Shown here piece by piece: positions 12,725 through 17,173 of a DNA stretch of 64,000 bases. Below the pieces are notes generated by a model, which had not been told where the DNA came from, searched no databases, and saw only the letters and a program-made list of their open reading frames with translations. The translations under genes and the position numbers were made by a program. The stretch's first letter is position 1, and each line of letters starts with the position of its first letter. This DNA comes from an uncultured Pseudomonadota bacterium (GTDB lineage: Bacteria > Vulcanimicrobiota > Vulcanimicrobiia > Eremiobacterales > Eremiobacteraceae): assembly GCA_963736005.1 (NCBI GenBank), contig CAVTNB010000001.1:1152001-1216000 (forward strand), read 5' to 3'.

Positions 12725-13348
12725 CTACAGGCGCGGAGGTTCTACCGGCGCCACCTCGCTTGGCGCTTGTTCCTGCGGGCTGGACGTTACTGCGCTGATC
12801 TCGTCAGGCGATACCAGCGCGCTCTCGACCACAAAGAGGGCTTCGCCGAAATCCACAGGTTGGCCATCCTCGACCACTTGCGCGACGAGCGCGGAGTCAA
12901 TGGGGCAACGCACTTCGTTGCGGAGGCGCAGCGCCTCGATGTATCCCAAGACCTGACCACTACTCAATGCGGCACCAGGGACGGGGGGTTGGGAAGCGTC
13001 GTGAAATATTCCGACCACTTCTGAGTTGATTGTGATGTAGCTGCGACCTGCCTCGCCGTTTTGCGCCGCTGTCCACGGCATGTACCGGGCGGCAGGCTTG
13101 GCGGAATCTCCAGTCGATCGAGCGGAGTCCGCCCCAGCTACTTCCCCTGTGCCACCGCTGCCCGCACGACTCGAGTCGACCGCCGCATTGGCCTTGACCA
13201 GCGTGACGCTCCCGTGTGGTGTTTTGAGTTGGAGCTGCGCAAGCGGCGATGCGGCAAAGAAGCGGGAGAGCGGATCGACCTGCTTGCGAACGAACCGCAC
13301 AAAGCCGGTCGGCTCTTCACGCGCGCGAGCCTTCTTGTTCTCCGCCAT
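12725..13348 (-). CDS. AccB/BCCP-like protein lacking the biotin-accepting lysine
   Basis: C-terminal biotinyl/lipoyl fold (ITINSEVVGIF...GQVLGYIEALRLRNEV...VEDGQPVDFGEALF); EAMKM is replaced by EALRL; immediately upstream of accC. Confidence 0.85.
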   Translation of the reverse strand: MAENKKARAREEPTGFVRFVRKQVDPLSRFFAASPLAQLQLKTPHGSVTLVKANAAVDSSRAGSGGTGEVAGADSARSTGDSAKPAARYMPWTAAQNGEAGRSYITINSEVVGIFHDASQPPVPGAALSSGQVLGYIEALRLRNEVRCPIDSALVAQVVEDGQPVDFGEALFVVESALVSPDEISAVTSSPQEQAPSEVAPVEPPRL

Positions 13349-13349
13349 C

Positions 13350-14591
13350 TTATATTGGTTCGGCGACTCCGCTCGGGTGGCCTTCGCTATGGTGCCCTAC
13401 GCCACTGACGACGGCTGCGCGCAGCGTGCGCTCGACGCGTTGCACGCCTGCGAGTCGCGCCCGCATTGCGGACAAGCCCGCTTCGAACTCCTGGGGTTTT
13501 AGGAGATGGAACGACGACAGGTGCTTGCGCGCGACGCGTTCGATGAGCAGATCGCCTGCGACGGTTTCTTTGCTTTCGATTTCGCGTACGACAATATCGG
13601 CAAAATCATGCTCTGTCAAATTGCGTATCAATGCTGGCAGTGATGGAAAGCGCGCCAAATCGACCCGCGGAATCGATGGGAAAAATTCGGCGAACGACGT
13701 TTCGATGAAGTGACGATGAGGGAGTGTCACGATGGCGATCTTTGCTTCGGGCGCGAGCACGGCGCGGAGCCGCAGCCAGAATTCTCTTTGCAGCGCGATG
13801 TAGTGAATGGAAAAGAAAAAGGTTACCGCGTCGTATGGGCCGGGTGGGAGTTCGCGATTGGCGTCGCCTTGGTAGTATTGAATGGCAAGGCTACTTGCAG
13901 CGGCCTTGCGGCGCGCGGCCGCAAGCATCGAAGCACTGCGATCGATGCCGGTCATCGAAGCTCCAGCTTGGGCGAGCAACGCGGTGAATCTGCCGGTGCC
14001 ACAGCCGACATCAAGAACCTTCATGCTGGGTCGCAGATGGATGGCTGCAACCACCGCCTCGAGGAGTCGCCGGTCGAGTGTGGTCAGCGGGCGGAGCTCG
14101 TCGTAGTTCGCACCCGCCCCATTTGGAGCATCGTAGTCGAGAGGACGGACCGTTTCTAACTCGGCCGTGCCGCCGATGCGCACCATGCTCTTCCGCACGG
14201 CGTCAGGAAGTTTTCGTGCTACGGCTTCGACCGTTCGGTTCTCGCTTCGCAATATGAGGTCGGCCCAAACGTCCGCAAGAGGCAAAACGAAAGCCTCCTC
14301 AACGAGCTCCGCGGCACGCCCGGCGTACGCGAGTAAACACAGATCGAGGACTGACAACTCCTGCGAGCGTTCGGCAAGTGCGAGCGCTAGATCGTTTGGT
14401 TGAATTTCAGTGGATAGCTCTGCTACCGCATAGTAAGCATCTTGATTCTCACCCGCAGGCGGTTGTTTCGCGCGGTAGAGATCCGAATTTCGAACGACGC
14501 TGCCCAACTTGCGTAGGTCGCGAAGTCCTTCGCGAATGTATCCTGGTGCGTCGCCGGCACGAGACGAAAGGCCAACGAGAGCCGCGTTCAA
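13350..14591 (-). CDS. Degenerate FolK (HPPK)-like domain fused to a class I SAM-dependent methyltransferase
   Basis: N-terminus aligns by eye to HPPK (GLSSRAGD, SDLYR, AVAELST, LDLCLL, EAFVLPLADV); C-terminal VLDVGCGTG...GIDRSASML...GDA; follows folP-folB. Confidence 0.8.
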   Translation of the reverse strand: MNAALVGLSSRAGDAPGYIREGLRDLRKLGSVVRNSDLYRAKQPPAGENQDAYYAVAELSTEIQPNDLALALAERSQELSVLDLCLLAYAGRAAELVEEAFVLPLADVWADLILRSENRTVEAVARKLPDAVRKSMVRIGGTAELETVRPLDYDAPNGAGANYDELRPLTTLDRRLLEAVVAAIHLRPSMKVLDVGCGTGRFTALLAQAGASMTGIDRSASMLAAARRKAAASSLAIQYYQGDANRELPPGPYDAVTFFFSIHYIALQREFWLRLRAVLAPEAKIAIVTLPHRHFIETSFAEFFPSIPRVDLARFPSLPALIRNLTEHDFADIVVREIESKETVAGDLLIERVARKHLSSFHLLKPQEFEAGLSAMRARLAGVQRVERTLRAAVVSGVGHHSEGHPSGVAEPI

Positions 14592-14962
14592 CGAGGCGTG
14601 CGGCGCAGGCGAATTTCCACCTCAGGCGTTGCACCGTCGAGCAGGCGCGGCTTCCTCACGCGAACGGATGCTTCCATAACTCGGGGGTCTTCGCACACGC
14701 GCTCGGCCAGACGCCGAGCGAGCGCCTCGAGCAACACGAACGACTGCTGCGTGACGATTTGCTCGCACAAACTAAAGAGCGTAGCGTAATCGATCGCATC
14801 GGCAAGAGCATCCGAAACCGATGGCTTGCTCAGGTCGGCTGTAATTTCGAGGTCAACATCGATGGGCTGCGTGCGGTCTCTTTCTCCCGGCAGCGCTCCA
14901 TGCTTCCCCCAAAAACGCATTCCGGTTATGCGAATGAATCCCGATTGGGGTGCAACGATCAT
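14588..14962 (-). CDS. folB: Dihydroneopterin aldolase
   Basis: GKHGALPGER..Q; AIDY; LLEALA; VRKP; ATGA overlap with folP. Confidence 0.92.
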   Translation of the reverse strand: MIVAPQSGFIRITGMRFWGKHGALPGERDRTQPIDVDLEITADLSKPSVSDALADAIDYATLFSLCEQIVTQQSFVLLEALARRLAERVCEDPRVMEASVRVRKPRLLDGATPEVEIRLRRTPR

Positions 14963-15837
14963 GATGGAAACCGCATGGGCAGGCGCTCCGGCGCTCGGGC
15001 GGCTCCAACCCGGCAAATTGCGTCGGCCACATCGACCACGCTGCGCATTTCGGCAACATCGTGAACCCGAACGATGTCGGCCCCTCCGGCAATCGAGAGC
15101 GCGCAGGCCGCAGCCGTGCCAAACAAGCGCTCTCCAACCGGCAACCCAGTAATTTTTCCGATAAACGATTTGCGAGATGCACCAACGAGCAGTGGATACG
15201 GCAGTCTGCTCGCGAACTCGTTGAGCCTGCCGATAATCTGCACGTTGTGATCGGGTGTTTTCCCAAAACCGATGCCAGGATCGGCAATGATTTTCTCGGC
15301 AGCTACCCCGCTGTCGCGAGCGTAACGGGTGGCGAGTTCGAGCGAACCGATAACCTCCTTGACGCAATCCCCATCATACTCGGCGTTGACGCGATTGTGC
15401 ATGACGATGAGAGCGGCACCCGAACGCGCCGCCAGTTCCACGATCCCGGGAATAGCACCCCAGACGCAGTTGATCATGTCCGCCCCTACGCTGAGAGCCT
15501 CCACGGCAACCGCTGGTTTGAACGTGTCAATTGAGATCGGCAGCTCGACCGCTCGGCGAATCGCCGCAACAACGGGAATCACGCGATGAAGTTCTTCGGT
15601 TTCGGACACCGGCTCGTGTCCGGGCCGTGTTGACTCACCTCCAATGTCGATGATATCCGCACCCGCCTCTGCGATGTCGATCGCGCGCCTCACGGCAGCG
15701 GCGGTGTCGGCGTAAATCCCGTCGCCAGAAAACGAATCGGGCGTCGCGTTGACGATGCCCATGATGAACGTGCGGGCACCCCACTCGAAAACGTAGTTGC
15801 GGACGATCAATGGCGGGAGCGGCAAACGCTCAAACAT
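14959..15837 (-). CDS. folP: Dihydropteroate synthase
   Basis: MGIVNATPDSFSGDG; DIGGESTRPG; DPGIGFGK; SRK; RVHDV. Confidence 0.96.
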   Translation of the reverse strand: MFERLPLPPLIVRNYVFEWGARTFIMGIVNATPDSFSGDGIYADTAAAVRRAIDIAEAGADIIDIGGESTRPGHEPVSETEELHRVIPVVAAIRRAVELPISIDTFKPAVAVEALSVGADMINCVWGAIPGIVELAARSGAALIVMHNRVNAEYDGDCVKEVIGSLELATRYARDSGVAAEKIIADPGIGFGKTPDHNVQIIGRLNEFASRLPYPLLVGASRKSFIGKITGLPVGERLFGTAAACALSIAGGADIVRVHDVAEMRSVVDVADAICRVGAARAPERLPMRFPS

Positions 15838-17173
15838 TGGCTGCTCGCGAGACGGAAGAATTCTCGAGGAACCAACGCCGCAGCGTCCCCACGAGAAAAG
15901 TGGATCCAGTGACGACGACGAGATCGTTTGCACCGGCAATACGGCGCGCGATCGCGAGCGCCTCGACCGGATCGTCTACCGCTCGCGATGGAAGCCCGGC
16001 CTGCTCGGCGGCGTTGACCAGCGTCTGCGAATGACGTGAGCGGCGGTGCGACACGTCGAACGTCGTAAAGATAAAGTGCGCCGGCAGCTGGCGCCATGCT
16101 TCCAACATACCGGCTGCATCCTTCTCCTGGGCAATCGCAACCACAAAGACAAGACGCCTCCCCGGAAAATGCCGGTCGATCGCGCCGCGCAACGCCGCTG
16201 CCTTTTCAACGTTGTGCGCGACGTCAAACAGCAGCGATGGGCGTGATGGATAGTACTCGGTTCTTCCGGGAAGGGAGATATTGCCGAGCGCCAGCGCTAT
16301 GTCGGCGGCGGTGGTTGGCAAGATGTTGCTGACGATCTCGCACGCCAGGATTGCCGTTGCAGCGTTGATGGCTTGAAACTCGCCGATCAGAGGTAAGGCT
16401 AATTGGTAGCGCGCCAGCGGCGTTTGGACGTCGATGGTTTGCGCGTAGGCGACGTCCCCAACCGTCGACCGAACGGTGACGTCTCGCGACAAAATAGAGA
16501 GTGGCGCGGAATGAACGCGCGCCGCTTCGGCAATGATTTCTAAGACGCTTGGCTGTTCCGCCGCGGTCACCACAGGAATGCCTTCTTTGATGATCCCGGC
16601 CTTGTCGCGCGCGATCTGCTCGATCGTGTCGCCCAAGACGTCGCGATGATCGGTCCCGACGTTTGTGATGATGCTGACCAATGGGATGATCACATTGGTT
16701 CCGTCGAGCGCGCCGCCGACACCGACTTCGATCACAGCGGCGTCAACCTTTTCCTCGGCAAAGTAGACGAACGAAAGCGCCACAAGCAGTTCGAAATAGG
16801 ATGGTGCGCCCCACTCGCACGATCGCATGTCGTCGATCACGGGAACGAGCATCTCAAAGATCGTCGCAAAGCGTTCTTCGCTGATTGTCGAGCCGTTGAT
16901 CCGAGCGCGTTCCGTGACCGAGTGCAGATGGGGTTTCGTGTGAAGTCCAACTCGCCGTCCGGTAGCTCCCAAGATTGCGGCAATCATGGTTGCGGTCGAT
17001 CCCTTACCCGCCGATCCCCCGACGTGGATGGAGCGAAATGACCGTTCTGGATTACCCAAGCGTTCGAGCAGCGAGCGCATGCGATCGAGACGACCAGGGA
17101 ATCTCGCCGACACCGATTCGCCGACGGATTTGTCCAAGAGTTTTACGGCAGTTTGGTAGTCCACGGCAGTCAA
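15830..17173 (-). CDS. folC: Folylpolyglutamate synthase/dihydrofolate synthase
   Basis: IHVGGSAGKGST; PHL...ER; EVGVGG.LD.TN; DH...LG; DVAHN; TGS. Confidence 0.93.
   Translation of the reverse strand: MTAVDYQTAVKLLDKSVGESVSARFPGRLDRMRSLLERLGNPERSFRSIHVGGSAGKGSTATMIAAILGATGRRVGLHTKPHLHSVTERARINGSTISEERFATIFEMLVPVIDDMRSCEWGAPSYFELLVALSFVYFAEEKVDAAVIEVGVGGALDGTNVIIPLVSIITNVGTDHRDVLGDTIEQIARDKAGIIKEGIPVVTAAEQPSVLEIIAEAARVHSAPLSILSRDVTVRSTVGDVAYAQTIDVQTPLARYQLALPLIGEFQAINAATAILACEIVSNILPTTAADIALALGNISLPGRTEYYPSRPSLLFDVAHNVEKAAALRGAIDRHFPGRRLVFVVAIAQEKDAAGMLEAWRQLPAHFIFTTFDVSHRRSRHSQTLVNAAEQAGLPSRAVDDPVEALAIARRIAGANDLVVVTGSTFLVGTLRRWFLENSSVSRAANV

Follow-up and report, generated by a model that had tools for sequence, protein, structure and literature searches.

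A degenerate FolK domain fused to a class I methyltransferase in the folate operon of an uncultured Eremiobacteraceae bacterium

The folate operon of an uncultured Eremiobacteraceae bacterium carries, directly after folB, a gene in which a degenerate HPPK (FolK) domain runs into a class I SAM-dependent methyltransferase. We analysed it in a window of 64,000 nucleotides (contig CAVTNB010000001.1, positions 1,152,001 to 1,216,000, assembly GCA_963736005.1). Our preferred reading, to which we give a probability of about 0.7, is that the gene is a spare folK whose HPPK half has decayed to a brace for the methyltransferase, with a FolK-FolE2 fusion protein likely doing the HPPK work. The starting point is the presence of two folK copies, of which the FolK-FolE2 one has all the residues that we scored. 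The trees suggest that a methyltransferase joined the then-intact operon folK in the ancestor of two families of the class, the family of the source genome (f1) and one of the two others (f3; the remaining one is f2). Both domains would then have gained an interface signature, seen in the sequences as D14-x-P-G-x-x-R20 on one side and H292-R293-x-x-x-E297 with S317 on the other, and brought together in a structural model. The catalytic and pterin-binding residues were afterwards lost at least three times with the interface kept, and the whole gene was lost repeatedly, as the sequences and loci described below show. The fused partner would be what keeps the dead HPPK domain. The weakest step concerns the reaction: the methyltransferase may O-methylate a small anionic metabolite (a carboxylate or a phosphate), like its stand-alone relatives and unrelated to folate, a proposal to which we give rather less than even odds.

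The fusion gene and its HPPK domain

The operon runs in the order folC, folP, folB, fusion gene, accB-like gene and accC (Table 1). The fusion gene starts with a TTG and overlaps the folB stop by 4 nt; the loci read share this overlap of start codon and folB stop. An earlier note, made from the sequence alone, had described a gene of HPPK descent that overlaps folB in the usual folK slot and continues in frame into an intact-looking class I methyltransferase. Both observations hold, given the overlap, the HPPK fold match reported below and a Methyltransf_25 match at residues 192-281 (71.7 bits, above the Pfam cut-off). A frameshift or assembly artefact was ruled out by full-length relatives and by a 95%-identical metagenome protein (P0002) that carries the identical deletion of the Arg-rich loop. 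Among the matches listed, 53 of 120 proteins cover at least 91% of the query. Neither the window nor the surroundings of folK-folE2 has an Rfam match that reaches the gathering score.

Table 1. Features of the fusion gene and its surroundings (positions in the window)
Feature	Position	Strand
Fusion gene, 413 aa: degenerate HPPK (FolK) domain, linker and class I SAM methyltransferase	13350..14591	-
HPPK-fold remnant, residues 1-140, with 2/14 scored active-site residues left	14172..14591	-
Fusion-specific patch G13-D14-A-P16-G17-Y-I-R20-E21, predicted to pack on the methyltransferase cap	14529..14555	-
Fusion-specific strand S36-D37-L38-Y39, with L38 in the predicted interface	14475..14486	-
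Position of the Arg-rich loop deletion, and D83-L-C85 left from the Mg-binding D-x-D	14337..14360	-
Class I methyltransferase domain, residues 146-400, with small-molecule-type cap	13392..14156	-
SAM-binding motif I, residues 192-200	13992..14018	-
Methyltransferase cap segments 291-297 and 317-323, receiving the remnant in the complex model	13623..13721	-
folB, dihydroneopterin aldolase	14588..14962	-
folP, dihydropteroate synthase	14959..15837	-
folC	15830..17173	-
Downstream AccB-like gene without biotin-acceptor Lys (context)	12725..13348	-

The HPPK profile PF01288, proposed as a check on the N-terminus, matches residues 6-74 weakly (19.1 bits, E 0.0017) and does not reach its curated cut-off of 25.7, and TIGR01498 gave no match to the fusion protein among the best 25 of 78 NCBIfam rows. 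In an alignment-based model of the fusion protein (pLDDT 93.6, pTM 0.91), residues 1-141 match the HPPK of H. influenzae (1cbk) with a Z of 17.9 and an rmsd of 2.5 over 137 aligned residues, which speaks against an N-terminus devoid of the HPPK fold; the modelled fold of the remnant is partly borrowed from intact fusions, because these stood in the alignment. The fold predicted from the single sequence was unusable (pLDDT 33.9).

Fourteen HPPK residues were scored in E. coli numbering, including N10, P43, Q50 and E77, which we take to belong to this set. Among the others, R92 and F123 are named as HPPK residues in PMC4814558, D95 and D97 are described in PMC3614987 as absolutely conserved metal ligands, and T42, Y53, N55, R82, H115 and R121 were transferred by an offset of 10 from the Arabidopsis numbering of 10.1101/2021.11.10.468163. 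The query retains 2 of the 14. From the group D95, D97, R82, R92, His115 and Arg121 it has the equivalent of D95 only, and from the pterin pocket (Thr42, the aromatic residue at 53, Asn55 and Phe123) that of Phe123 only (F101). The three defects listed in the earlier note are all real when the protein is set against its intact relatives: the Arg-rich loop is deleted, D83-L-C85 stands in place of D-x-D, and P-H is absent. Further losses affect the Asn of G-S-N, the T-x-P segment, the pterin-binding Asn and aromatic residue, and the Arg of R-x-F. With so few scored residues left, the description of the domain as catalytically degenerate was well founded. By these features the N-terminal domain is a descendant of active FolK and not a member of it. 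It resembles HPPK/FolK (PF01288, TIGR01498, EC 2.7.6.3) in fold, in its place after folB and in its descent from an intact fused FolK, whereas it differs in its score below the Pfam cut-off, in the deleted Arg-rich loop and PH, and in a fusion-specific interface patch.

The second FolK and the history of the operon copy

Besides the remnant in the fusion gene, the source genome has exactly one HPPK, the N-terminal domain of a 511-aa FolK-FolE2/MptA protein (G000 C1:737670-739205; L001:1453-2988), which scores 122.5 bits with the folK model TIGR01498 and 266 bits with the FolE2/MptA model TIGR00294, both above the NCBIfam cut-offs. GTP cyclohydrolase FolE of type IA was not found in this genome, which is 84% complete. 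All 14 scored residues are present in 29/29 FolK-FolE2 copies fetched from genomes of the family (four of them end at contig ends inside FolE2), and these copies cover all 9 genomes with a degenerate operon copy. PF01288 is above its cut-off in 32/32 family genomes, and among the genomes sampled from each of the class's three families the FolK-FolE2 fusion was matched in 9/9, 71/71 and 1/1, at full length in those rows that were listed. Judging from its residues, FolK-FolE2 likely makes the pterin pyrophosphate for FolP. The search for another folK, suggested with the first description of the gene, was therefore successful, and the expectation that HPPK activity comes from elsewhere is likely correct; its other part, a non-orthologous replacement, is unnecessary because an orthologous FolK is present. 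The findings reveal no gap in folate synthesis. They do carry a warning for annotation, since some degenerate proteins bear the name folK in their source (P0005, with 4/14 residues) and the likely working FolK is hidden in a FolK-FolE2 fusion. The latter links non-consecutive pterin steps and, apart from G000, was matched in every one of the 81 genomes sampled from the class. A ClpC-like gene adjacent to folK-folE2 (L002:4736-7222; G000 C1 about 734700-737200) is split over several reading frames, which suggests frameshifts or assembly errors.

A precedent has been published for Acinetobacter baylyi, in which a second FolK is active and the folB-linked folK2, without R92 and F123, is inactive and fails to complement (PMC4814558). 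Duplication of folK is common; the same source reports two folK copies in 14% of about 11,400 genomes, and duplicates are also noted in PMC1971073. In both bacteria folK is duplicated and the copy linked to folB is the one that lost catalytic residues, the other copy of A. baylyi being the working one. However, the active copy of A. baylyi lies beside panB and its FolK2 is described as a single gene without the two residues, whereas in the present genome the copy that looks active shares a protein with FolE2 and the dead one, much more strongly eroded, has a methyltransferase as its partner. FolK frequently occurs within fusion proteins; those known (FolB-FolK, FolK-FolP and FolB-FolK-FolP; PMC1971073, PMC4224340) associate consecutive folate enzymes, unlike the present one, whose partner is a methyltransferase. 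We found no description of a FolK-methyltransferase or FolK-FolE2 fusion in the literature searched, the supplements of PMC1971073 and PMC4814558 being outside its scope, and the methyltransferase fusion of a dead FolK appears to be new within these bounds.

The slot after folB was read in 30 loci of f1, which have 7 intact fusions, 9 degenerate ones (one visible only in part, at a contig end) and 14 cases without the gene, 13 of them with folB directly before accB. At one locus (L061, G041 C25) the slot holds an unrelated signal-peptide-like ORF of at least 490 residues. Conservation of the fusion in relatives, another point that the earlier note had wished to see checked, is clear from 69 distinct full-length fusions, 38 with 14/14 residues and 31 with 6 or fewer; the two classes were set by five of the 14 residues, and the other nine are independent of the definition. 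This set excludes 8 partial or self proteins, 6 partial loci and 4 duplicates; a further 7 loci, truncated by contig starts and missing the N-terminal motif, were left out before counting. The near-copies L094 and L099 were also dropped for the conservation and pocket counts. Since 38 of the 69 fusions have a fully intact HPPK despite FolK-FolE2, a redundant copy does not have to decay for that reason alone. One family contains intact, repeatedly dead and deleted forms side by side, which make a natural series from enzyme to pseudoenzyme.

The f2 family has a plain FolK in the slot at 19 loci, 7 of which have it fused in frame to an AccB-like neighbour whose AccB-like part lacks the Lys (L073, L074, L075, L076, L079, L091 and L092). 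The operon folK therefore fuses readily with whatever follows it. The methyltransferase profile, with 13 candidates scored per genome, matched 3/3 f3 and 14/32 f1 genomes at E 1e-40, and had no match in 166 f2 genomes, which keep the operon.

On the methyltransferase-domain tree rooted with f3 (35 rows hand-picked to span the clades and a careful search; the tree of the 69-row set came from a quick one), at least 3 changes between intact and degenerate states are forced, and monophyly of the degenerate forms is rejected (p-AU 0.0058). The folC-folP-folB tree has the same main degenerate clade (support 100/97), with gene losses within it, and gene absence requires 6 changes on this tree, 3 of them forced by starred branches. 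Both trees thus point to vertical inheritance, with repeated decay of the HPPK half and a dispensable gene. As read from the scored residues, HPPK function was lost independently at least three times in the fusion lineage.

A low-sensitivity search gave no remnant without methyltransferase among 210 candidates of 30-226 aa. Similarly, no fusion outside this clade was seen among the best 150 profile matches, reported without taxonomy, of 1.84 billion representatives; in these 150, a gap from 235 to 190 bits parts the fusion family from single-domain matches. Three unpublished genomes contribute one degenerate row (G013), one gene-absent row (G011) and one row of the 32-genome counts (G008). No conclusion hangs on them, and the permission of their depositors is needed before publication.

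The methyltransferase and its acceptor

The second half of the protein belongs to the class I SAM-dependent methyltransferases by its motifs and modelled fold: G196, G198, G200 and D217 are invariant in 57 rows, and a Rossmann-like fold carries motif I (GxGxG) and the acidic residue after strand 2. Its relatives form a wide family of stand-alone proteins of about 250 aa, which we count in hundreds, with named records from Thermoleophilia, Gaiellaceae, Dehalococcoidia and Bathyarchaeota. In two proteins (P0162 and P0214), a member of this methyltransferase family carries a NUDIX-like domain at its N-terminus, and a plasmid search with the stand-alone relative P0070 gave nothing at 1e-20. NCBIfam has no model near its cut-off for this domain, and the ESM Atlas returned generic class I methyltransferase clusters only.

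Over residues 150-400, the model is similar in fold and cap to capped small-molecule class I methyltransferases: 3ege (Anabaena, uncharacterised), TTHA0223 (2yqz), TmtA (5egp), OxaG (5w7k) and HvrF (9e72), with Z of 20.7, 20.4, 20.3, 19.7 and 19.6, respectively, tied within 1.1 Z (rmsd 2.6-3.2, 222-242 aligned). Trans-aconitate methyltransferase and BioC are grouped with them on the same grounds. However, identities are of 13-20%, no NCBIfam model comes near its cut-off, and the substrate is not transferable from these enzymes. Of all PDB sequences, 3ege alone was matched along almost the full family profile (6-228 of 246).

Seven residues (Y163, R167, F304, P305, D311, R314 and S359) are common to 79 fusions and 51 stand-alone proteins, and the acceptor is therefore likely the same in both. 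Y163, R167, D311, R314 and S359 are candidate residues of the acceptor pocket, where the two invariant Arg tentatively suggest an anionic small acceptor. We looked at the neighbours of the stand-alone relatives in 37 loci (28/49 non-fusion metagenome loci and 9/80 genome loci), whose ORFs were called by a rough script: FolB, HPPK, a pterin-binding barrel and GTP cyclohydrolase are all missing among the 115 neighbouring ORFs. The only recurrent neighbour is an RNase Z-like metallo-beta-lactamase, in 9/37 loci that are probably one clade. In these Gaiellales/Thermoleophilia-type loci (L127, L131, L135, L136, L137, L173, L174, L176 and L178) the methyltransferase lies just 3' of the RNase Z-like Lactamase_B_2 gene.

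These data bear on the best-placed alternative, in which a pterin or folate intermediate is methylated in the pocket of the methyltransferase itself, this activity was the reason for the fusion with FolK, and the remnant serves today as a brace and nothing more. We regard it as unlikely, and the same holds for its more specific form, in which the methyltransferase was recruited onto FolK to methylate the substrate or product of HPPK, and lineages with a dead HPPK draw their substrate from FolB or FolK-FolE2. Two families did keep the fusion within the folC-folP-folB operon, where an interface evolved; that its intact form lasted so long in a folate operon is also what a pterin-related function would predict. 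Moreover, the 2'-O-methyl-tetrahydromonapterin of Agrobacterium is made by an orphan methyltransferase (PMC4488946), and the conserved Arg residues could hold a pyrophosphate. Yet there is no folate gene by the 37 stand-alone loci that share the conserved residues, the gene is missing from the slot in almost half of the f1 loci (14/30), and, at 13 candidates scored per genome, it was not found in the 166 f2 genomes that keep the operon. At E 1e-38, the methyltransferase family was also not matched in the 121 genomes searched from the bacterial family to which a Mesorhizobium genome belongs, a search without positive control in a group for which the membership of Agrobacterium is not established; two Mesorhizobium genomes gave core-domain matches only. 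The substrate is thus probably not a pterin. If it were, the stand-alone relatives would mark an unrecognised methyl-pterin pathway and the orphan activity would get a protein.

What the remnant keeps

The degenerate copies have not decayed evenly. Mean identity among 29 of them is 0.52 in residues 2-40, 0.54 in the methyltransferase and 0.27 in residues 41-130, their least conserved part, where the pterin and ATP sites lie. The corresponding values among the 38 intact copies are 0.60 for residues 2-40, 0.53 for the methyltransferase and 0.55 for residues 41-130. The dN/dS values, which are simple pairwise counts with whole-gene dS in GC-rich genes, are 0.10, 0.37 and 0.10 for residues 2-40, residues 41-130 and the methyltransferase between the source genome and G002, and 0.17, 0.33 and 0.07 between the source genome and L093, these being the two closest pairs. 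Across close pairs they range over 0.10-0.31 in residues 2-40 and 0.33-0.52 in residues 41-130, whereas close pairs of intact copies have about equal values in the middle part and the methyltransferase (e.g., 0.11 vs 0.13). The motifs D-[SA]-[PA]-G-x-x-R and [ST]-D-L-Y are found in 67/67 fusions and in 0/16 unfused operon FolKs (the 19 f2 loci minus 3 with mis-called starts), and the D14 patch is lost in no sequence of the 69-row set.

Modelled as separate chains, the two domains form a complex that scores 0.84, against 0.00 for the best of 3 controls, with at least 97% contact agreement between runs and a partner pLDDT of at least 87. The mark used for such models is reached by 116/157 solved complexes and 2/215 mismatched pairs, counts that hold only roughly here because the alignment is our own, of covalently fused halves, and uncalibrated. 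The predicted interface places residues 13-18, 20-21, 38, 40 and 51 on the cap at 291-297 and 308-323. Structure searches gave no solved structure of such a fusion, so it is unlikely that the model recalls a known complex. What it shows is packing, and not a need for packing, the halves being one chain in nature. In degenerate copies, conservation is 0.82 at the N-terminal positions of this interface and 0.37 at the remaining ones (0/20000 permutations), and E297 and S317 are conserved in more than 90% of the fusions and not in the 51 stand-alone relatives. The domain therefore behaves as a pseudoenzyme, which has lost its catalytic residues and has its fold and one surface under purifying selection. 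It likely persists as a folded structural brace on the methyltransferase cap, as the model would have it; the stand-alone relatives presumably work without any brace. With the retained surface identified, the persistence of dead enzyme domains becomes testable by a few point changes.

Two other accounts of the remnant fare worse than that of a brace. It could be a functionless vestige on its way out, kept for the start of the reading frame through translational coupling to folB, in line with the overlap of start codon and folB stop, the progressive shortening in several lineages and the frequent loss of the whole gene. We hold this for improbable, as residues 2-40 are as conserved as the methyltransferase and evolve under constraint in close pairs, and as the patch, present in every fusion of the set, maps to one predicted interface. 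Lower still stands the idea of the earlier note that the dead domain binds a pterin and gates or directs the methyltransferase. The HPPK fold is retained, dN/dS in residues 41-130 is still below 1, the query keeps F101 (the second stacking Phe), and the modelled contact with the cap makes allostery geometrically possible. However, among the 29 degenerate copies the pterin-tethering Asn and the first stacking aromatic are each kept in 0/29, the Thr in 7/29 and the second Phe in 5/29. Large and differing deletions run through the pocket and leave N-terminal parts of 115-170 residues, against a median of 172 in intact copies. HPPK binds pterin after Mg-ATP and loop closure (10.1101/2021.11.10.468163), and the parts for these steps are gone. 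The proposed pterin-binding or regulatory module is thus not supported, since it is the predicted interface that was conserved and not the pocket.

The last two readings are very improbable. The usual folK slot is what would speak for a weak HPPK activity of the domain, which has lost both catalytic Arg, the second of two Asp ligands described as absolutely conserved (PMC3614987), the His and the Arg of R-x-F. An identity of the methyltransferase with BioC (malonyl-ACP O-methyltransferase), placed before accB-accC, would agree with its position and with a TIGR02072 match over residues 175-337, but was ruled out by the score of this match (41.7 bits for a cut-off of 184.95) and by bioB, found in only 2/32 family genomes (55-98% complete), both without the fusion gene; accB-accC also follow folK where the methyltransferase is absent.

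The AccB-like gene that lies between the fusion gene and accC has E-A-L-R-L in place of the biotin-acceptor motif E-A-M-K, and a canonical accB is found elsewhere (G000 C1 near 1825809). Over 40 genomes, the biotin position of the AccB-like protein is Arg in 14 f1 genomes, Lys in 12 f1 genomes, and Gly in 13 f2 genomes and 1 f3 genome. The protein is possibly a non-biotinylated BCCP-like subunit, for which the BADC proteins of plants provide a parallel.
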